The position numbers and the translations under genes are program-made. The notes below the pieces were generated by a model. The model worked only from the letters and a program-made list of their open reading frames with translations, had not been told where the DNA came from and did not search any database. From positions 1 to 7,547 of the IMG/VR virus record IMGVR_UViG_2563366903_000007: 7,547 nucleotides of DNA; one strand, 5' to 3'. The DNA is from a virus (lineage: Duplodnaviria > Heunggongvirae > Uroviricota > Caudoviricetes). This document shows positions 1 to 7,547 of the stretch, in pieces. The stretch's first letter is position 1. Each line of letters begins with the position of its first letter.

Positions 1-374
1 GTGGTCTCCACCAGTGACTGCACCCCGAAGGTAACCCGCAGGCGGTCAATGTTCGCGGACGTAATGGTGCGCGTCACCGGCTTTGCCTTCGTCACCTCCA
101 CGCCCAGTGCGGTTTCCGCCCCGGAGGACTCAAAGCCTTCCGGCGGTGTCTGCTCCTGCTCCCCGGCACGCCAGACGGCGGTCACACCGTGTATCACGGG
201 ATTACCGTCCGTGTCCGTAAGCGGGGTTTTGTTCACCAGAATACTCTGCAGTCCCTTCACCGGACCTTCCACCGGTCCCTCACCAATGGCATCAATCACA
301 CTCATCATCTGCGTGGATTTGAGATTATCCTTCGCCTCACGCGGTGTGTGCCCCTTGCCGCCCCCTTTACCCAC
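1..374 (-). CDS. J: Host specificity / central tail fibre protein J, N-terminal 124 codons only; gene continues past the window start
   Basis: Reverse-strand translation from GTG (complement of 372..374) gives MGKGGGKGHTPREAKDNLKSTQMMSVIDAIGEGPVEGPVKG...TRTITSANIDRLRVTFGVQSLVET, near-identical in pattern to the remembered lambda gpJ N-terminus (MGKGSSKGHTPREAKDNLKSTQLLSVIDAISEGPIEGPVDG...TSANIDRLRFTFGVQALVETT). AGGAGAGGGGGA Shine-Dalgarno lies just upstream. Missed by the ORF track because it runs off the window edge. Confidence 0.9.
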   Translation of the reverse strand, partial: MGKGGGKGHTPREAKDNLKSTQMMSVIDAIGEGPVEGPVKGLQSILVNKTPLTDTDGNPVIHGVTAVWRAGEQEQTPPEGFESSGAETALGVEVTKAKPVTRTITSANIDRLRVTFGVQSLVET

Positions 375-417
375 TCTGTCCCCCTCTCCTGTCTGATGTC
401 TGAATCTGTTTATGCCC

Positions 418-448
418 AAAAAACAACAGGCACCCCGGAGGATGCCTG
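418..448 (-). terminator. Candidate rho-independent terminator on the tail-operon strand, between the small ORF and J
   Basis: Minus-strand RNA reads CAGGCAUCC-UCCG-GGGUGCCUG (about 9-bp stem with one G.U pair, 4-nt loop; plus 427..448) followed immediately by UUGUUUUUU (plus 418..426). Hand-folded, no energy calculation. Confidence 0.5.
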
Positions 449-450
449 TA

Positions 451-546
451 TCATGACTGAATAAAAATTCTGAATATCTTCACATTTTCACACACTGACT
501 GTGGCGCGTATAATTTCGCTGCGTTAGTGTTTTTTTGCCGTGACAT
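451..546 (-). CDS. Hypothetical 31-aa small protein (MSRQKNTNAAKLYAPQSVCENVKIFRIFIQS); candidate moron ORF
   Basis: ATG at complement of 544..546 preceded by AAGGAG (complement of 557..562, 10-nt spacer); TGA stop at 451..453 sits 2 nt before the minus-strand terminator hairpin. Below the ORF-track length cutoff. No similarity to anything I recognise; coding status unproven. Confidence 0.3.
   Translation of the reverse strand: MSRQKNTNAAKLYAPQSVCENVKIFRIFIQS
461..514 (+). promoter_or_regulatory. Candidate sigma70 promoter on the plus strand (antisense to the tail operon)
   Basis: Perfect -10 TATAAT at 509..514; -35 TTCACA at 487..492 (4 of 6 consensus, 16-bp spacer); A/T-rich UP-like tract AATAAAAATT at 461..470. 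Predicted transcription start near 521. Confidence 0.45.
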
Positions 547-621
547 AAAAAAACAACTCCTTAACACTAATCTTCATTTGTCTGAATCTCCCGCAGCTCC
601 GCAACTCTGCGGGATTTTTTT
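521..621 (+). ncRNA. Candidate ~100-nt small RNA, antisense to the I-J intercistronic region and to the start region of the 31-codon ORF
   Basis: Bounded by the promoter above and the plus-strand terminator below; contains no ATG-initiated ORF. Predicted 5' A/U stem-loop (GUUUUUUU 529..536 pairing with AAAAAAAC 547..554), a central C/A-rich single-stranded stretch AACAACUCCUUAACACUAAUC, and a 3' terminator hairpin with U-tail, which is typical Hfq-type sRNA architecture. Not verified against Rfam. Confidence 0.35.
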
Positions 622-622
622 A
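589..622 (+). terminator. Rho-independent terminator on the plus strand, 8 nt from the stop codon of I
   Basis: CCCGCAG (590..596) / 10-nt loop / CUGCGGG (607..613) followed by AUUUUUUUA (614..622). On the minus strand the hairpin is preceded, not followed, by the homopolymer run, so it is orientation-specific for plus-strand transcripts. Confidence 0.6.
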
Positions 623-628
623 TGCCGT

Positions 629-1309
629 TTACCCCTGCCGCCCGATAACCACGACCCTTCCGCCCCCGCCTTCATCACGGGTGCTGATGTCCTGAGAGAT
701 ACGTCGTGAACCAACCAGCATTTCCCCGTAAGGCACCGGCATCGGGTTACCCTGGGCAATCATGTTGTCCAGCGAGGAAAAGTACGTGTTCTGTTTACCG
801 TTATCCGTTGCCCTGTATTCCGGTGTTTTTGCCTTCGGGGCCAGCATCTGTGCCACACCGCCCAGTATCATGCTGGCTCCAAGTGAAAACAGCATCGTGG
901 TAGCAGAAAAACCACCGGCTGCCAGGGCTGAACCCCATAACGCCATTGATGCTCCTGCAGTGAAGAAAGACCCCACAATGGCAGCTGCCCCCAGCACAAT
1001 CTGTAGTCCGCCCTTTCCGGCACCGGCCAGTCGCGGCACAATATGGATAACCGTTCCCTCACCCAGTGGTTCGTGAAGGCGGGCATACACCGCCTCCGGT
1101 GCCGTATCCTCACCGGCAATACGTATCTGGTACCAGCCTTCGTTCATCTGACGGCGAAAGCCCGGCATCTGCATCGACAGGGCGCGGATGGCTTCCGCTG
1201 CCGTGTTCACATACAGGCTGAGGCGGCGGCCAAATCGTTGTAAATCCCCGTGAAGGCAGATGCGTGCCAGTGGCGGTGACGCCAGACAGAATGCGTTCGT
1301 CGTTGCCAT
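629..1309 (-). CDS. I: Tail tip assembly protein I (226 aa)
   Basis: Translation MATTNAFCLASPPLARICLHGDLQRFGRRLSL...NGKQNTYFSSLDNMIAQGNPMPVPYGEMLVGSRRISQDIS matches the remembered lambda gpI pattern (ARICLYGDLQRFGRR..., NGKQNTYFSSLDNM...). Position between K and J and the 103-nt overlap with K are as I recall for lambda. GGGAGAGG Shine-Dalgarno upstream of the ATG. Confidence 0.93.
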   Translation of the reverse strand: MATTNAFCLASPPLARICLHGDLQRFGRRLSLYVNTAAEAIRALSMQMPGFRRQMNEGWYQIRIAGEDTAPEAVYARLHEPLGEGTVIHIVPRLAGAGKGGLQIVLGAAAIVGSFFTAGASMALWGSALAAGGFSATTMLFSLGASMILGGVAQMLAPKAKTPEYRATDNGKQNTYFSSLDNMIAQGNPMPVPYGEMLVGSRRISQDISTRDEGGGGRVVVIGRQG

Positions 1310-1950
1310 TTTTCGGAATACCTCTCCCGTTTACTCAGTTGTTCAGGAATATGGTGCAGCAGCTCGCCATCACCACAGTAAATGGCGGCATGATTCGGCA
1401 CCGATGAACCAAAACAGCACAGCAGCACATCGCCCGGTTGTGCTGATGACAACGGCACCTGATACAGCCCTGTGGCCTCCAGATTATCCAGGTACAGGTT
1501 CTGGCCGTTGCGCCACCAGTCATCCTCGCGATGAAAATCCGGCATTTCAGTCCCCGCCAGATGATAAGCATCCCGGAACAGCGTGTAACAGTCCGTCACC
1601 CCGTGCGCAAAGCGCCGTCCTGTCAGATGTGGCACACAGCGGAATTTGTGAATGTCACCCCGGCAGACCAGCCACCAGGGCAGGGCACTTTTTATCTGCA
1701 GCCGCCGGTCAGCCTCGCTCAGCCAGGGCAGCCCACCGGGATGACTGTGGACCAGTGCCACAATCTCCCCCTGCATCTCTGCCCGCAGCCAGTCTTCCGG
1801 TGCGATACGAAAATACGCCTCCGGCTCTGCGGAAATATTCACACAAGGGATATACCGCTCCCCCTCCGGCGTGCTTATCACGAAGCCGCACGACTCCGCA
1901 GGCGCACACCGCCGGGCATGCGCCAGAATCGCTGATTCAGTCTGTGTCAT
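1207..1950 (-). CDS. K: Tail tip assembly protein K (247 aa), MPN/JAMM-like N-terminal domain plus NlpC/P60-like C-terminal region
   Basis: Contains HSHPGG (JAMM HxH motif) at residues 68..73 and a Cys (VTDCYTLF) and His (NHAAIYCGDGELLHH) spaced as in NlpC/P60 peptidases. Synteny L-K-I. Start taken as the ATG 10 nt after the L stop, which gives a complete MPN domain; the first 87 codons of the longer track ORF 1207..2211 overlap L out of frame and are rejected. The lambda annotation I recall is 199 aa, so the exact start is uncertain. Confidence 0.85.
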   Translation of the reverse strand: MTQTESAILAHARRCAPAESCGFVISTPEGERYIPCVNISAEPEAYFRIAPEDWLRAEMQGEIVALVHSHPGGLPWLSEADRRLQIKSALPWWLVCRGDIHKFRCVPHLTGRRFAHGVTDCYTLFRDAYHLAGTEMPDFHREDDWWRNGQNLYLDNLEATGLYQVPLSSAQPGDVLLCCFGSSVPNHAAIYCGDGELLHHIPEQLSKRERYSEKWQRRTHSVWRHRHWHASAFTGIYNDLAAASACM

Positions 1951-1960
1951 AAACCGGGAT

Positions 1961-2659
1961 TTACTGCGAAAGTTTATTAATGGAAAGGAAACCACCAAAA
2001 TTGCCGACATTCCTGCGCAGTTCACACCCGCGCATGCACTTGCTGCATCTGTCCTTACGGATATCCGTGGTGGGTTTATCGAACTCATCCGCCACAGCCC
2101 CGCCCGTGTAACCACACTCATCAGAGCGGTAGGTCCACATACAGGTGTTCGCCAGCATGATACGACCGGGAAACAGCGCCCCGTCCGTCTCCGTCGGTGT
2201 GGCCAGCACAAACGAGGCCGTCATGGCTGTCAGCTGCGACATCTGCTCCACCACCCAGCGGTCACTCAGCTCCTGCTCCGGGTCCGCTTCCGGATTGCCC
2301 GCAACGAAATTCACCGCATCCAGAAAACGGGCATACACCCGGCGGCGGACCACCGTGGCCCCCACCAGACTCTGCAGGTCTTCCGCCATCCCGGTGACAA
2401 GGCCAAACAGATTGGACACCGTCAGCAACGGTCTGGCACTGCTGCCCTTCCCGCTCATCTCAAAACCGCTGCCGTCAATCGGGTATGCCTGATATTGCCG
2501 CCCCTGCCAGGTGACCGGCTCCCCTTTTTCATTCAGCTCATTACAGAAAAAATACCGCTCACCGCCCTGTACCGTCAGGTCGATTTCCCAGAGCACCACC
2601 CGCGGTGACTGCTCTGACTTAACCGACTCGTTCAGACTTTCTTCGTGAATATCCTGCAT
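1961..2659 (-). CDS. L: Minor tail protein L (232 aa)
   Basis: Same length as lambda gpL and near-identical motifs from memory (VVLWEIDLT, GERYFFCNE.NEKGEPVTWQGRQYQ, GRIMLANTC.WTYR.DECGY.G, VGNFGGFLSINKLSQ). C-terminal four-cysteine cluster retained. ATGA start/stop overlap with M. Confidence 0.93.
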   Translation of the reverse strand: MQDIHEESLNESVKSEQSPRVVLWEIDLTVQGGERYFFCNELNEKGEPVTWQGRQYQAYPIDGSGFEMSGKGSSARPLLTVSNLFGLVTGMAEDLQSLVGATVVRRRVYARFLDAVNFVAGNPEADPEQELSDRWVVEQMSQLTAMTASFVLATPTETDGALFPGRIMLANTCMWTYRSDECGYTGGAVADEFDKPTTDIRKDRCSKCMRGCELRRNVGNFGGFLSINKLSQ

Positions 2660-3000
2660 CAGTTCACCACCTGCTCAATCGTACAACTGAAATCACTGTA
2701 CCTGGCGTTATCTGTGACGCTCCACTCCCGGCACACCACCCTCACCGTCCGGTTATGTTTCGGTGGTCGCCACAAAAAGGCACGGTAACCACCATGCCAC
2801 GATAAAAATTCATCCAGCCAGCGCCGGGTTGGTTCATCCGTCACCCGGAACACCGCCTGAAACGTCTTCAGTCTGGCATTAAGTCCCGTCGGTCGGCGCT
2901 GTTCATAACCGTCACCAAACCGAACCCTCACCACCGACGGTTTCTCACTCACCTGCATCCCTTCACGCGGGACCAGATGCAGCGTTTTTATCTCAGCCAC
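2659..3000 (-). CDS. M: Minor tail protein M (113 aa)
   Basis: Translation contains VRFGDGYEQRRPTGLNARLKTF...FLWRPP...IEQVVN, matching the remembered lambda gpM (VRKVRFGDGYSQ...FEQVVN). GTG start overlapping the end of H; 1-nt overlap with the L start. Confidence 0.92.
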   Translation of the reverse strand: MAEIKTLHLVPREGMQVSEKPSVVRVRFGDGYEQRRPTGLNARLKTFQAVFRVTDEPTRRWLDEFLSWHGGYRAFLWRPPKHNRTVRVVCREWSVTDNARYSDFSCTIEQVVN

Positions 3001-6000
3001 TCAGCATTCCTCCGTCACGTCGCATGGACAGCATCACCGCCTGCACCCGCTGGTCAATCAGCTGCACAAGACTGCCTGCCGCCTCCGGCCCTATCTGTCC
3101 GTTAGCGCCGTCATTCTGAATGGCGATGTGGTAGACCGGGGAATACACCAGACCGGCACTGCCGTTCATACTGCCCACCGCGCGTACGCCCAGCGAGCCA
3201 TCCGCCGCCCGGGTCAGGGGCATAATGGCTTCAGGTCCGGCTTCCCCCATCAGCCCGGCCCCTTTTGCAAACGCAAAGTACGTGGGCGTGTCCACAATGC
3301 TGTTGCTGTACGCACTCAGGTTTGCCGAGGTATACACGCCGCCTTTTGCATTGGCCACCGCACCGCCCAGCCAGTCACCAATACTGCCAATAAATCCTCC
3401 CGCACCGGACATACCATTTGCCGCCGTCTTAATTCCGTTGACAATCGCGGCATTCATAAGAACTTTTGAGATTTCCTGCAGCACTGATGAGGCCCAGTTG
3501 CGCCATTCCACTTTATTCCCGTTCAGCATCTCCGTGATGTTATTCACCATCCCTGAGATACCCTCCGTCGCAAGCTGTGCTGCCTGTGAGGCGTAATCGG
3601 ACGCATTATCCACCCAGTTACTGAGCCCCTCCTGCAAGCCTTTCTGCCAGTCCGCACGCTGCGCATCCGATTCGGCATAAAAGGCTGCCTGGTCCTTAAG
3701 GCGTTCGCTCAGATACTGCGCGTTCTGTGCCCGTGCCTGTCTGTAAAAATCCTCACTGATATCCCCGGTCTGATACTGAGACTGAAGGTCCGCATCCTTC
3801 TGGCGGAAGCTGTCGCGGATCTGCTGCAACTCCCGCATGCGTTCCCTGGCTCGTTCTCCCTGCCCGTATCCCAGCAGTTCGGCTTCATTTGATGCACGCG
3901 CAGCCACATTATCATTCTTCAGGGTCTCTTCCCGGGATCGCAACTGTTCCCGGATTTTTTGCTGGTCAATCAGGGCCGCGTTACGCAGCAGTTCCTGCTT
4001 CTGCATCTCCGTCAGGGTTTTCAGTTCGCCCTGCGCAGTCTGGTACTTCAGCTTCGCCAGCTCTGTATTCTGACCCGCCAGTGCCAGTTGCTCTTTCTGC
4101 TGCTTCAGTAGCCGGGAGAAACTGTCTTCCGCTTTTTCCGTCTCTGATTTTCCACCCCGGGATTTAGGTTTGTTCGCCTCGTTATTACGCCAGGCTTCCA
4201 GAGCATTACTGATATAACGCTGTCTCGCCTCCTGATACGAATCCCCCACAAAACCAAGGTCATCCGCCGCATACCCCAGCCGGGCACGCTCTTTTTCCTC
4301 CCCCTTCAGTCGGGACAGGGCCAGCTCACGTTCTGTTTTTGTCAGGGCGCTCTGCTGTTTATCATCCAGGGTGGCCTGCGGCAGCCGTAACGGTACATTC
4401 ACCAGTCCCTGACGCTGCTGAAGCAGTTCATTCCCCAGCCCCAGCAGACGGTTGAATTCCGTATGCTGACCGTTCATAACCAGCATGGACTGGTACACCT
4501 TATTCTGCTCTGCCGCCTGCTGACGAATTAACGCCACACGACGGTCTTCCAGCCCGGCAAGCACATCCTGAATGGACTGCGCTTTTTCCTGCATCTGTGC
4601 CAGACGGGACTGCTCAACGGCAAGCTGCTCTGTTGCCTGAGAAAGCCCTTCCGTTACGGTCTTCACCGATGTCAGATGGTTTATCATGAATCCGTCACCG
4701 GTTGTCCAGCCAGGGTTAGCCAGAACATACTGATATCCAGCGATTTTTTCCTGCAGGGATTTCACCCGGCTGGCCTGTTCATCAATCAGCCGGTTCTGCT
4801 CTGCCAGAGCCGCCCGTGTTCGTCCTTCATTATCTGAGGCTTCAGGCAAAGACATTGACGGCGTTTTATGCGCGATTTCATCTATCGTCAGTGCATACTG
4901 GCGCGCTGACTCCCTGGCCTGCTCCTGATTCTGGTACAGCGTATACCATGCTGCTGCCCCCAGCATCACCAGTCCGGGTACGCCACCAACCAGTCCCAAC
5001 GCACCAGTCATCAGACGTGAGCCCACCGCCGTTGTACTGTTCAGCGCATTCTGGGCTGCGGTTCTGGCAGCAATATTTCTGTTCAGGCGTTCCTGTGTGG
5101 CCACCAGACGGGCTTCTGCAGCAATCTGCATCTCCGTCCCGCGGGCTGCCGCCACAGCCTGCTGTGCACGGTACACGGCTGCCCTTGCCCGCGCCGTGGC
5201 AATCTGCGTCCCCCTGAGCTGTGCTTCCGCCAGTGCCACTTCATTACGTGCTGCCGTCACAAGTCCTGCCGTGGCAGACACCGCTCCGGAGGCCATATTG
5301 CCAAAGTACCGGGCAACCCCGACGGCAACCAGCGCCCCCGCGGCTGTTGCCACATTATCAATATTACCGGCAACACCGTTCAGCACGCCGGAGAGCGTTT
5401 TTGTCACCCCGCTGGCCTCATTCGCGCCACCCACCCAGGCCATAAAGGCGTTTTCCACCTTTGTGATACTACCGGAAACCGTTTCCGGCATGGCCGCATA
5501 TTCATCACGCAATACCCCCAGCTGGCTGATTAACGCAGGGACCACTTTATCCGCTGTCAGTTTTCCGTCATCCGCCATTGCCTTCAGATCTTTACGGGCC
5601 ACACCCATCCCCGCAGCAAGCGCGCGGATCACCCGGTCGCCATTTTCGTTAACAGCATTAAATTCTTCGCCACGCAGTACACCCTGTGCCAGTGCCTGGC
5701 TGAGCTGGGTGATCACCGAACCGGATTCCGCAACTCCAGCCCCTGACAGTTTCAGTCCTGTCGAAATGGCCTCCGTCACCTTCAGCACATCATCAGCACT
5801 GTAACCATATTCACGCATTGAGGCTGCCGAGCGGGCAAACAGGGCCGCATTATCTGAAAATGCCGTGCCCGTCCGCTGGCTGATATCCATCAGCACTTTC
5901 TGTGATGACGAAAATTCATCGGATGACTGCGACGCCTGTTTCAGTCGGGCATTCACGGAACTCCATTCATCGGCCAGAGAAATCAGGTGCCCGGTGGCAA

Positions 6001-6235
6001 AGGCACCTGCAAATGCCCCCGCCGTTCCGGCAACTGAAGCGCGGATTTCCGTCAACTGGCTGTTCAGCTCAGCCAGGGCGCGTCGCTGCTCCCGGGCGAC
6101 TGCGGCAGCCTGACGCCCGCCATTCTGCAGGGTCCGGTAATATTCACTGCCCATGCGGGAAGCCCGCTGGATCTCCGACTGGAATGACTGCGAATTTGCC
6201 GAAATTTTGATAATCAGTTCACGTAACGTCGCCAT
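2993..6235 (-). CDS. H: Tail tape measure protein H (1080 aa)
   Basis: Largest ORF, located between G-T and M. Typical tape-measure composition: long Ala/Gln/Glu/Arg-rich coiled-coil regions, a hydrophobic Gly-rich segment (LMTGALGLVGGVPGLVMLGAAAWY), and a C-terminal region (TPTYFAFAKGAGLMGEAGPEAIMPL) resembling the lambda gpH C-terminus as I recall it. GGAGAAAGG Shine-Dalgarno before the ATG at 6233..6235. Confidence 0.95.
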   Translation of the reverse strand: MATLRELIIKISANSQSFQSEIQRASRMGSEYYRTLQNGGRQAAAVAREQRRALAELNSQLTEIRASVAGTAGAFAGAFATGHLISLADEWSSVNARLKQASQSSDEFSSSQKVLMDISQRTGTAFSDNAALFARSAASMREYGYSADDVLKVTEAISTGLKLSGAGVAESGSVITQLSQALAQGVLRGEEFNAVNENGDRVIRALAAGMGVARKDLKAMADDGKLTADKVVPALISQLGVLRDEYAAMPETVSGSITKVENAFMAWVGGANEASGVTKTLSGVLNGVAGNIDNVATAAGALVAVGVARYFGNMASGAVSATAGLVTAARNEVALAEAQLRGTQIATARARAAVYRAQQAVAAARGTEMQIAAEARLVATQERLNRNIAARTAAQNALNSTTAVGSRLMTGALGLVGGVPGLVMLGAAAWYTLYQNQEQARESARQYALTIDEIAHKTPSMSLPEASDNEGRTRAALAEQNRLIDEQASRVKSLQEKIAGYQYVLANPGWTTGDGFMINHLTSVKTVTEGLSQATEQLAVEQSRLAQMQEKAQSIQDVLAGLEDRRVALIRQQAAEQNKVYQSMLVMNGQHTEFNRLLGLGNELLQQRQGLVNVPLRLPQATLDDKQQSALTKTERELALSRLKGEEKERARLGYAADDLGFVGDSYQEARQRYISNALEAWRNNEANKPKSRGGKSETEKAEDSFSRLLKQQKEQLALAGQNTELAKLKYQTAQGELKTLTEMQKQELLRNAALIDQQKIREQLRSREETLKNDNVAARASNEAELLGYGQGERARERMRELQQIRDSFRQKDADLQSQYQTGDISEDFYRQARAQNAQYLSERLKDQAAFYAESDAQRADWQKGLQEGLSNWVDNASDYASQAAQLATEGISGMVNNITEMLNGNKVEWRNWASSVLQEISKVLMNAAIVNGIKTAANGMSGAGGFIGSIGDWLGGAVANAKGGVYTSANLSAYSNSIVDTPTYFAFAKGAGLMGEAGPEAIMPLTRAADGSLGVRAVGSMNGSAGLVYSPVYHIAIQNDGANGQIGPEAAGSLVQLIDQRVQAVMLSMRRDGGMLSG

Positions 6236-6251
6236 TCACCTTTCTCCGGGC

Positions 6252-6275
6252 GTAAAAAAACCGCCTCAGCGGTTC
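6252..6275 (-). terminator. Weak terminator-like hairpin with U-tract in the T-H intergenic space
   Basis: Minus-strand RNA AACCGC-UGAG-GCGGUU (6-bp stem, 4-nt loop) followed by a run of U, lying between the T stop (6283..6285) and the H ribosome-binding site. Short stem, so probably at most partial termination. Confidence 0.3.
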
Positions 6276-6282
6276 TCATCAT

Positions 6283-6962
6283 TCATGACTGTGCTGCAAA
6301 GCTCAGCGCGTCTTCCAGCGCCGTAAACGGATCCACCTCCGGCTTGTCCTCATCCTCGCCCCAGCAGAGCATGGCGTCCTTCAGTGCAACATTCATCCCC
6401 TGTGCCCCAAAAACCGCTTTCACGATCTGTGCATTACGGATATCCCCGCGCTCATCACCCAGCGGGGATACCCTGTCGAACTCCATCCACATCATCGCCT
6501 CGCTCGCACTCAGGCTGTGCTGCAGTTCGGATAAGGTGCGCCCCAGACGGAGCGCAAGTCGCATCAGAAAGCGAATTTCCGGGCGGGCTACTTTTTTCTG
6601 GCCGACTCTGCATCAGCGATCAGTTCCAGTGCCTGACGCAGCAACCGGGCATGTACCGGACCATAGACGGCCAGCACCTGCTCACGGTCGTCCGGAGTGA
6701 ACACCCGCTGCAGATCCGTATCACACAGGACATCGCAGAACAGCGTCACATCCGCTTCCAGGTTACGGCGGGTTTTCGCCACCACCGACAGGGTATCGTC
6801 ATCCTCTCCATCACCATTGAGCACTTCCTGCCACAGATACCAGGCCTCTGCCGAAGGCTCCCGCAGCACCACGCTGACATTACCCCATTCCGGCACCTTC
6901 ACCGTTTTATGACGAAACCCTGACAGTCTGGCCAGCGCCAGCGTTTTCAGATCTTTTGCCAT
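6283..6962 (-). CDS. GT: G-T tail assembly chaperone fusion made by programmed -1 ribosomal frameshift (G frame 6597..6962 joined to the -1 frame 6283..6597)
   Basis: After the slip at AAAAAAG the -1 frame continues VARPEIRFLMRLALRLGRTLSELQHSL... to the stop at 6283..6285, which is exactly the track ORF 6283..6564 extended upstream. The T frame has no ribosome-binding site or sensible independent start. The G/G-T frameshift is conserved in long-tailed phages. Confidence 0.8.
6588..6962 (-). CDS. G: Tail assembly chaperone G (124 aa)
   Basis: Small acidic protein (DGEDDD stretch) directly upstream of the tape measure gene, ending ...LIADAESARKK with a slippery heptamer in its last codons, as expected for the gpG chaperone. 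Confidence 0.9.
   Translation of the reverse strand: MAKDLKTLALARLSGFRHKTVKVPEWGNVSVVLREPSAEAWYLWQEVLNGDGEDDDTLSVVAKTRRNLEADVTLFCDVLCDTDLQRVFTPDDREQVLAVYGPVHARLLRQALELIADAESARKK
6591..6597 (-). other. Slippery heptamer A AAA AAG for the G-T -1 frameshift
   Basis: Minus-strand sequence GCC AGA AAA AAG TAG; the heptamer A-AAA-AAG (complement of 6591..6597) lies in the last two codons of G immediately before its TAG stop. Confidence 0.75.
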
Positions 6963-6967
6963 AAGCC

Positions 6968-7547
6968 TTATCCGCCCGCACCATTAACCGTTACTGTACA
7001 CGCATCAGAGGTAATGCTCTGCGGCTGTTCTGCAGAATCCGTTACCTCGCAGGTATAAGCCCCCTTATCACCTGACTGCGTATTGGCTTTACTGAAAGTG
7101 TCAGTAGTCTGTCCCTCTACCGGCTGACCATCCTTCTTCCAGGCGTGTTTATAAGGCGGCGTTCCCCCGTTGACACTGACTGACATTGTCAGCAGCGCAC
7201 CGGTATTCACGGTAAGTGTCTTATCCAGATTTTTCCCAAACGCCAGCGGTACCACATAGGACACCGGTTTACCCTTCAGACGCAGTGAAAACGTTGCAGC
7301 CACCACGCCGTTGGTACCGGATGACCAGGTGTGCTGACGCACTTCCGCCAGGAACTTAAAGCCCTTACCGGACGGAAACTGCACCTTAAACGCATACACC
7401 GTGTCATTGTCATAGGCATCACGCAGGGCGTTCTGGGCCTGATTCAGATAAAAATTACCCGACATGGAAATCTCGGACGACGCCCCCAGACCGTTGATGT
7501 TCTCCTGCTCTGTGGAGCAGAGCGTGGTCACATCAATATCCTGTTTC
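6968..7547 (-). CDS. V: Major tail (tube) protein V with C-terminal Ig-like domain; 5' end lies beyond the window
   Basis: Position immediately upstream of G. Motif YAFKVQFPSGKGF...GKP resembles the lambda gpV core (YKIRFPNGTVDVFRGW) from memory. The C-terminal ~80 residues (PYKHAWKKDGQPVEG...GAYTCEVTD) look like an Ig-like fold. The frame stays open upstream of the track's GTG at 7529..7531 to the window edge, so the true start is probably outside the window. Confidence 0.82.
   Translation of the reverse strand, partial: KQDIDVTTLCSTEQENINGLGASSEISMSGNFYLNQAQNALRDAYDNDTVYAFKVQFPSGKGFKFLAEVRQHTWSSGTNGVVAATFSLRLKGKPVSYVVPLAFGKNLDKTLTVNTGALLTMSVSVNGGTPPYKHAWKKDGQPVEGQTTDTFSKANTQSGDKGAYTCEVTDSAEQPQSITSDACTVTVNGAGG

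Follow-up and report, generated by a model that had tools for sequence, protein, structure and literature searches.

The stretch of viral DNA analyzed here, hereafter referred to as the window, comprises 7,547 nucleotides (nt; positions 1 to 7,547 of the IMG/VR record IMGVR_UViG_2563366903_000007). According to its open reading frame (ORF) map, the minus strand of this 7.5-kb region carries the block of tail genes from a lambdoid prophage (Table 1). Our analysis concerns a short plus-strand segment between the tail assembly gene I and the tail-tip/host-specificity gene J. The I-J gap extends over 232 bp (397-628) and has a G+C content of 41%, compared with 57% for the whole window. As the corresponding gap of phage lambda spans just 60 nt, the gap in the window is an insertion relative to lambda. 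Judged by its relatedness to experimentally characterized RNAs, the plus-strand segment 521-621 within this gap very probably encodes a member of the PasB family of Hfq-dependent, trans-acting, base-pairing small RNAs (sRNAs), organized as a self-contained cassette.

A preliminary description of the window, derived from the letters of the DNA alone, had proposed that the prophage encodes a regulatory sRNA, roughly 100 nt long, which is transcribed on its own and runs antisense to the tail operon, and this proposal matches PasB, a validated sRNA at the homologous locus of another prophage. The promoter that it had described is present with all its elements at the positions given for them: an A/T-rich, UP-like tract, the hexamer TTCACA, a 16-bp spacer and TATAAT. 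Hexamers and spacer together constitute an 11/12 near-consensus sigma-70 match, the best promoter-like site of the window; a match of this quality is seen in 1.7% of dinucleotide shuffles (7.5-kb window, both strands), and three promoter-like sites were found across the window against 3.8 expected from the shuffles. The strong hairpin with a U-tail expected some 100 nt past the promoter was likewise found, and the fold energies were computed: the terminator folds with -13.3 kcal/mol (z = -3.1) and the 102-nt segment 521-622 with -21.1 kcal/mol (z = -2.9), the latter including a 5' stem formed by 523-531 and 563-571. The RNA body contains the CUCCUU motif (557-562) to which the preliminary description had drawn attention. 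Seed 2 is mostly unpaired in the minimum free energy fold, in which its 3' portion alone forms a weak 4-bp hairpin. The U7 tail is likely to provide the site for the proximal face of Hfq.

Table 1. Features of the window, with the sRNA cassette first and its neighborhood thereafter.
Feature	Position	Strand	Basis or remark
Predicted PasB-family sRNA, 101 nt	521-621	+	Alignment to E2348/69 PasB, published coordinates, fold
A/T-rich tract	461-480	+	Upstream of the -35-like hexamer
Dyad TCTGA-N6-TCACA, inside the conserved block ATAAAAATTCTGAATATCTTCACATTT (461-487)	469-484	+	Conservation in I-J gaps
-35-like hexamer TTCACA, lineage-specific	487-492	+	Other variants differ
-10 hexamer TATAAT	509-514	+	Sequence match
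Variable seed 1 region CAACUCCUUAACACUAAU, includes CUCCUU	554-571	+	Pairs with the 5' arm 523-531 in the window allele (predicted)
Seed 2 AAUCUUCAUUUGUCUG, conserved and single-stranded, immediately before the terminator	569-584	+	Conservation, target complements
Rho-independent terminator; 8-bp stem 589-596/607-614, U7 tail 615-621	589-621	+	Fold
31-codon ORF; ATG 546-544, Shine-Dalgarno sequence AAGGAG 562-557, stop 453-451	451-546	-	Not a conserved gene
Terminator-like hairpin with U-run, between sRNA promoter and J start	416-449	-	Fold; neighbor, not part of the sRNA
Tail-tip/host-specificity gene J, 5' part; GTG 374-372	1-374	-	Flanks the sRNA module
Tail assembly gene I; stop codon 631-629	629-1309	-	Flanks the sRNA module
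K	between L and I in gene order	-	ORF map
L	1961-2659	-	ORF map
M	2659-3000	-	ORF map
Tape-measure protein gene H	2993-6235	-	ORF map
T	6283-6564	-	ORF map
G	6588-6962	-	ORF map
V	6968-7531	-	ORF map

PasB (E2348CN_0006) is an 83-nt sRNA encoded by prophage PP6 of the enteropathogenic Escherichia coli (EPEC) O127:H6 strain E2348/69 and is one of five 'pathogenicity-associated' sRNAs described in this strain (Pearl Mizrahi et al., 2021; PMC8550237). Its reported position (NC_011601, 1466343..1466261, minus strand; Pearl Mizrahi et al., 2021) falls, by the annotation of that record, opposite in strand to the genes on either side of it, a 'tail assembly protein' (I) and the 'phage attachment tail tip protein J'; the window sRNA occupies the identical I-J junction in the same antisense orientation. 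When reverse-complemented, the Northern probe used for PasB (AATCCCGCAGTGATCGCGGAGCT; Pearl Mizrahi et al., 2021) corresponds to the window terminator except for its loop. Window and E2348/69 share 86% identity over the whole I-J gap (280 bp), and 74 of 88 aligned columns (84%) are identical when the comparison is made with the annotated 83-nt PasB. Common to both alleles are the upstream box, the -10 hexamer, the 5' sequence GCGUUAGUGU7GCC, the terminator CCCGCAG/CUGCGGG-U7 and the stretch AAUCUUCAUUUGUCUG, so that seed 2 of the window (569-584) is identical to that of E2348/69. The window allele departs from PasB by three substitutions in the CUCCUU-proximal seed (CUUAACACUAAUC in the window versus CUUCACAUUGAUC in E2348/69), by its A-rich linker and terminator loop, and by a 3-nt insertion before the terminator. 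The existence of an sRNA gene at the I-J junction is therefore already known from PasB; what is new is a rare allele with an altered upstream seed. Because the longest exact word shared by the two alleles is 15 nt, the word-size-28 BLAST employed in a recent survey (Zhu, Shabalina and Storz, 2026; bioRxiv 10.64898/2026.05.13.724894) could not have seeded on the window allele from E2348/69 PasB.

PasB was detected by Northern blot and by RIL-seq (a method that ligates and sequences interacting RNAs), its stability depends on Hfq, and its abundance drops by log2 6.8 under activating and 2.4 under non-activating conditions (Table S2 of Pearl Mizrahi et al., 2021), a comparison that we read as one of the hfq mutant with the wild type, which agrees with the stated Hfq-dependent stability. 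With 37 RIL-seq partners, PasB ranks 15th in the number of interactions (their Table S6), and it is always found on the sRNA (RNA2) side of the chimera; about 77,000 other fragments of PasB were recovered on Hfq from overnight cultures in lysogeny broth (LB), compared with 11,000 from Dulbecco's modified Eagle's medium (DMEM) (Pearl Mizrahi et al., 2021). By analogy with these homologues, the window allele should be expressed and should act like PasB.

A second set of relatives leads to enterohemorrhagic E. coli (EHEC). EcOnc22, EcOnc23 and EcOnc24 were reported as plus-strand candidates from crosslinking and analysis of cDNA with Hfq (Hfq-CRAC) in prophages Sp15, Sp14 and Sp11, respectively, of EHEC O157:H7 Sakai (Table S2 of Tree et al., 2014; PMC4104026). 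EcOnc22 gave a Northern band of about 85 nt and was 'destabilised' in the absence of Hfq; EcOnc24 is listed as a homologue of EcOnc22 and EcOnc23 (Tree et al., 2014), and its locus was not located here. Since that study used an older coordinate version of the Sakai genome, we calibrated the shift with the published AgvB1 peak and the Rfam AgvB match (offset +137 to +146); at 1.94 Mb, the published coordinates and those of NC_002695.2 differ by a shift of about +140 nt. EcOnc22 and EcOnc23 fall, in the present version of the Sakai record, into the J-I gaps of Sp15 and Sp14, which hold a divergent PasB-like gene, and after the shift both CRAC peaks lie inside its predicted 91-nt RNA. These RNAs share with the window allele the I-J gap, the strand, the upstream box, AAUCUUCAU and the terminator; however, they constitute a divergent subfamily with approximately 73-75% identity across the region, and have a 5' hairpin (GCAUUAC..GAUGC) and a seed 1 (CUCCAUAACGUUAAUC) of their own. 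From these comparisons, PasB of EPEC and EcOnc22-24 of EHEC appear to form one family, a link that seems not to have been drawn in the studies consulted; Table S6 of Pearl Mizrahi et al. (2021) lists PasB without an EHEC homologue.

The family was further explored with an IMG/VR pattern scan for the upstream box, which returned 120 loci with 54 distinct promoter-plus-sRNA variants. As this sample was ascertained by the box itself, two further samples were drawn independently of it, one through the I protein and the other through the 3' part of the sRNA. The terminator signature is present in 65 of the 66 I-J gaps with both anchors in the I-protein sample, and the whole unit is kept in more than 100 loci; the -10 hexamer and the terminator, whose conservation in homologous prophages the preliminary description had made decisive for its proposal, are retained. 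The family is mosaic. Its constant elements are the upstream box ATAAAAwTTCTGAAnnTCTTCACATTT and, in the RNA, GCGUUA with a U-run after it at the 5' end, AAyUCC, UUAAUCUUC and the terminator CCCGCAG/CUGCGGG-U7, for which one variant carries the compensatory pair CCCACAG/CTGTGGG; in a set of 32 variants, AAUCUUC hardly changes at all. Variation is seen in the linker, in the segment separating CUCC from AAUC, in the terminator loop and in the -35 hexamer. PasB variants have been said to differ by only a few nucleotides (Zhu et al., 2026), and the family is broader and more mosaic than that.

Among 5,426 complete E. coli genomes, 1,668 (about 31%) match the 244-bp module region, much of this match being owed to the conserved promoter and flanks, and 18 carry the window sRNA allele, E. 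coli SW070917, 2015C-3121 and S19-651 among them; the sRNA gene is unannotated in every record examined. A scan of genome contigs with an exact 21-mer gave no match, and the box pattern retrieved from them two contigs of about 500 bp, assigned to Asaia platycodi JCM 25414 (L006) and Parendozoicomonas haliclonae (L007), that are most likely E. coli or phage contamination.

The I-J gaps of the relatives display several further arrangements. In six IMG/VR loci (L042, L085, L090, L091, L121 and L258) the sRNA module is found in tandem, each copy with box and terminator, and between the copies lies an apparent remnant of the 3' end of gene I. The I-J gap of L185 (IMGVR_UViG_2541047932_000012) contains an ORF with its own terminator in place of the PasB promoter and 5' end; by eye, this ORF reads as the Cu/Zn superoxide dismutase gene sodC, and its location there makes the I-J junction look like a hot spot for self-contained insertions. 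A second gap architecture of about 342 nt, whose J-proximal part is unrelated to the window, occurs in L135, L145 and approximately 37 other loci anchored through I. Just upstream of the PasB promoter, this gap type has a plus-strand terminator (AAACCCCGGTATCAGCAGATACCGGGGTTTTCTTTC) at which a further RNA of that strand may end.

Nothing in the I-J gap is conserved better than the dyad TCTGA-N6-TCACA upstream of the promoter hexamers. It was found in 65 of the 66 I-J gaps drawn through the I protein, the sole exception being a gap in which a sodC insertion replaces the promoter, and in all 28 loci ascertained solely by the 3' part of the sRNA, where it precedes the UUAAUCUUC stretch by 91-97 nt. 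One lineage, which also has a tandem module, retains both half-sites, TCTGA and TCACA, with a changed spacer. Of the two promoter hexamers, the -10 occurs among the 54 variants as TATAAT, AATAAT, GATAAT, TATCAT, GAAAAT and AACCTT, all of which have A as their second and T as their sixth base. The TTCACA that had been proposed as the -35 exists in the window but is not a property of the family, as TTCTGT, TCCGGC or TTTTGC take its place elsewhere.

The dyad agrees at nine of ten core positions with the CRP consensus, which we take to be TGTGA-N6-TCACA, and we tentatively consider it a candidate site for activation by CRP-cAMP, although we hold this to be less probable than not. Activation by CRP would fit, since the half-sites are kept while the spacer varies, since most lineages lack a -35 hexamer, and since PasB is more abundant in overnight LB than in DMEM. 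DMEM contains glucose; growth phase, however, would account equally well for the difference between the two media. The spacing counts against CRP: a class II site is canonically centered near -41.5, which places its center about 29.5 bp before the -10 hexamer begins, whereas the dyad is centered 32.5 bp upstream of the first -10 base, near -44.5 and 3 bp farther away. Alternatively, the dyad might represent a distal UP element combined with a weak or partial -35. When sites for LexA, RcsB, IHF and OmpR-type regulators were compared by eye with the conserved box, none fitted as well as that for CRP. In one relative (L038), an insertion sequence, presumably of the IS3 family, separates the box of the sRNA promoter from the -10; the orfA of this element starts with MTKNTRFSPEVRQRAV.

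The partners of PasB bear on how the RNA would act. Under activating conditions they are bfpB, bfpI, ftsZ, galE, ler, perB and rplX; under non-activating conditions they include E2348C_2648, the napF 5' untranslated region (UTR), map, yhhX, the nlpD-rpoS region, hflX, fabR and caiF, as well as the tolC and raiA 5'UTRs (Pearl Mizrahi et al., 2021). Every one of the RIL-seq partners comes from another place in the genome or from a plasmid, and it is for this reason that a trans-acting sRNA, one of the two options raised at the outset, is favored. To locate pairing regions, the complements of PasB 7-mers were counted in the windows of the ten best-supported RIL-seq targets and compared with 200 dinucleotide shuffles; for the best 7-mers, none of the 200 shuffles reached the observed count. 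Two stretches are enriched. The first is PasB nt 37-47 (UCCUUCACAUU), the complement of which (TGTGAAGGA) is present in four of the ten targets (fabR/yijD, caiF, ler and napF); the second is nt 49-57 (AUCUUCAUU), with the complement ATGAAGA(U) in hflX, ler, rpoS, napF and smg-yrdD. The latter site lies at the 5' end of rpoS, where the chimeric reads begin in the first rpoS codons. The second stretch, preceding the terminator, is the one proposed as the PasB seed from its conservation (Zhu et al., 2026). Complements of UCCUUCACA are positioned at the Shine-Dalgarno sequence of yijD, at the start codon of napF, at codons 2-4 of caiF and inside the coding sequence of ler. The remark that CUCCUU resembles an anti-Shine-Dalgarno motif is therefore partly vindicated, as the yijD, napF and caiF sites of E2348/69 PasB fit the usual initiation block by Hfq-dependent sRNAs.

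These data lend themselves to a simple model. In the lysogen, the late tail operon is silent and the sRNA would be made from its own sigma-70 promoter. Its terminator hairpin, U-tail and internal U-run would bind Hfq, and single-stranded stretches containing CUUC would pair with GAAG(G)A sites, which are rich in purines and located on or close to the start codons and ribosome-binding sites of mRNAs from host and virulence genes. The stretches in question are AAUCUUCAUUUGUCUG and, for part of the alleles, the region with CUCCUU. Such pairing would alter the translation or the stability of the target mRNA. Seed 2 is intact in the window allele (569-584). Since its seed 1 is changed and predicted to be paired, the set of targets may be narrower than, or shifted from, that of PasB.

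Several observations weigh against this assignment or limit its reach. The promoter predicts a start at G521 and hence a 101-nt RNA; for PasB, the 5' end as published maps to position 536 of the window, about 15 nt downstream, and would give 86 nt. That end was set 'according to RNA coverage' and the approximate size of a Northern band (Pearl Mizrahi et al., 2021), and for the Sakai homologue 91 nt are predicted against the band of about 85 nt; either the published estimates are loose, or the U-rich 5' end is trimmed. Searches of Rfam 15, which the preliminary description had suggested, yielded no family match for the window RNA at the gathering threshold, and chance-level hits only up to E <= 10 (Plastid-rpl20, rseX, NsiR1 and GcvB at 11 bits); the PasB family has no Rfam 15 model and hence no independent covariance-model hit. 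RNAalifold, applied to a MAFFT alignment of 32 variants, returned a meaningless 4-pair structure, and in single-sequence folds the 5' domain folds differently between subfamilies. PasB is without a common target motif in Table S7 of Pearl Mizrahi et al. (2021), the enrichment of the two seeds was obtained with ten hand-picked targets and about 64 k-mers tested, and the PasB targets are RIL-seq partners for which the direction of regulation is inferred. Lastly, seed 1 of the window has three positions that differ from E2348/69 and, by prediction, is base-paired to the 5' arm, and the transcript, its Hfq dependence and the partner list are known for homologues rather than for strains with the window allele.

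Among other explanations, the best-surviving one, which we nevertheless regard as improbable, holds that the RNA acts mainly in cis: fully complementary to the I-J spacer of the late mRNA, it would tune J expression or be itself turned off in lytic growth, through RNase III processing, transcriptional interference or sponging. The module has indeed no other location than the I-J junction and no other orientation than antisense, and the adjoining conserved hairpin on the operon strand hints at managed transcription across the junction. This hairpin (416-449) is more stable on the minus than on the plus strand (-18.7 versus -13.2 kcal/mol) and covaries among relatives, with C-G replaced by U-A at pair 8; in 14 loci, the window included, full pairing is attained solely as U.G in the minus-strand RNA. 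It may serve to stop, before J, RNA polymerase unmodified by Q. Yet the sRNA ends 7 nt short of the I stop codon and lies some 145 nt away from the J ribosome-binding site; moreover, PasB is detected in lysogens, in which the late operon is silent, and 37 of 37 partners map elsewhere. The occurrence of an unrelated sodC insertion and of tandem modules at the same junction suggests a permissive insertion site rather than a required position. A purely cis role is therefore unlikely, but an additional cis effect may occur in lytic growth.

We give still less credence to the speculation that, in the manner of AgvB, the RNA titrates a GU-rich core sRNA, be it GcvB or a different one, as a sponge or anti-sRNA. 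It was raised by the C/A-rich stretch 551-571 and finds precedents in the prophage anti-sRNAs AgvB and AsxR. Neither GcvB nor any other core sRNA is among the RIL-seq partners of PasB in the two growth conditions, however, and pairing with GcvB is no better than that of shuffles. This was assessed with duplexes restricted to R1, full-length duplexes having given unrealistically long looped pairings: the window RNA reaches -17.5 kcal/mol compared with -14.4 +/- 2.7 kcal/mol for shuffles, 12% of which are as good, while for four other alleles 11-40% of shuffles are as good and an ideal mimic attains -32.6 kcal/mol. The CACAACA target consensus is absent from 521-588, the window has no Rfam match to AgvB or AsxR, and AgvB is located downstream of Q/PR' and not in the tail region.

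We consider it very improbable that the functional unit is instead the minus-strand ORF of 31-38 codons, with the plus-strand RNA as its antisense partner in a type I toxin-antitoxin-like arrangement. The ORF possesses an AAGGAG Shine-Dalgarno sequence 10 nt before its ATG, ends 1 nt before the hairpin 449-426, and is annotated as a hypothetical protein in one phage record. But among 66 unique relatives the frame leading to the conserved stop may have as few as 18 or as many as 68 codons, the most frequent types, E2348/69 included, have 18-19 codons and no ATG, and changes in the length of the T-run shift the frame. The reported complementarity between the RNA and the ribosome-binding site and start codon of the 31-codon ORF exists but is trivial, as the two overlap on opposite strands, and cis-antisense control of this ORF is unsupported, the ORF being absent from most relatives. 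Equally implausible is a chance promoter-like site beside a tail-operon terminator with no functional RNA at all: while promoter-like sites are no more numerous in the window than in shuffles, the 11/12 match is rare among them, a U-tail follows the terminator on no strand but the plus strand, over 100 loci retain the entire unit, and homologues give Hfq-dependent Northern bands.

Concerning the neighboring genes, translation of J from the GTG at 374-372 reads VGKGGGKGHTPREAKDNLKST. The leader of J (about 400-420 of the window) contains the heptamer GTCTGAT, whose copy number differs among relatives, L150 having two extra copies. The G and T ORFs (6283-6962, minus strand) are in a lambda-like arrangement; in lambda, a -1 frameshift yields G-T.

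Taken as a PasB-family gene, the window RNA demonstrates that reading of the raw sequence recovered a genuine type of Hfq-dependent sRNA gene hidden in a phage structural operon; it extends the PasB alleles by a rare one that lacks annotation and has an altered seed, and joins PasB of EPEC and EcOnc22-24 of EHEC as one family. The conserved promoter box may explain the timing of RNA synthesis. EPEC PasB partners include ler, bfp, per, map, espC and the rpoS 5' end (Pearl Mizrahi et al., 2021), and allelic changes in the seed could therefore alter virulence and stress regulation between strains. A more far-reaching, and in our estimation rather doubtful, interpretation views the I-J cassette as a modular, fast-diversifying sRNA platform, in which an invariant nutrient-responsive promoter with a CRP-like dyad is combined with a retained AAUCUUCAU seed while the other seed is swapped; it would at times duplicate in tandem and may be paired with an operon-strand terminator gating J. 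If so, each prophage lineage would wire the carbon status of its host to different host and virulence mRNAs and, after induction, the late transcript would be a perfect sponge turning the sRNA off.

Two known systems invite comparison. Identity with AgvB was considered and rejected: AgvB is 51-60 nt long and located downstream of PR', and neither RF02702 (AgvB) nor RF02703 (AsxR) matched the window at the gathering threshold or at E <= 10, a search for which Rfam AgvB, found in Sakai at 96.5 bits, served as positive control. In Sakai Sp10 (L222), STnc100 (428-620, plus strand) and AgvB (621-682, minus strand) are convergent and abut end to end. Like AgvB and AsxR, the window RNA is a short, prophage-encoded and presumably Hfq-binding RNA whose 5' part varies while the 3' part with the terminator is conserved, and like them it is a self-contained insertion in a late region. 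AgvB and AsxR, however, are situated downstream of Q/PR', measure 51-60 nt and sequester GcvB or FnrS, whereas the window RNA has no above-chance pairing with GcvB and its E2348/69 homologue no sRNA partners in RIL-seq. The second system is that of the phage 'morons', which are inserted into the late operons of lambdoid phages as self-contained units, each with a promoter and a terminator (Juhala et al., 2000, as cited in Tree et al., 2014). The window module resembles them as a promoter-plus-terminator unit in a gap absent from lambda, but, unlike these elements, it carries as its cargo a non-coding RNA that points against the operon.

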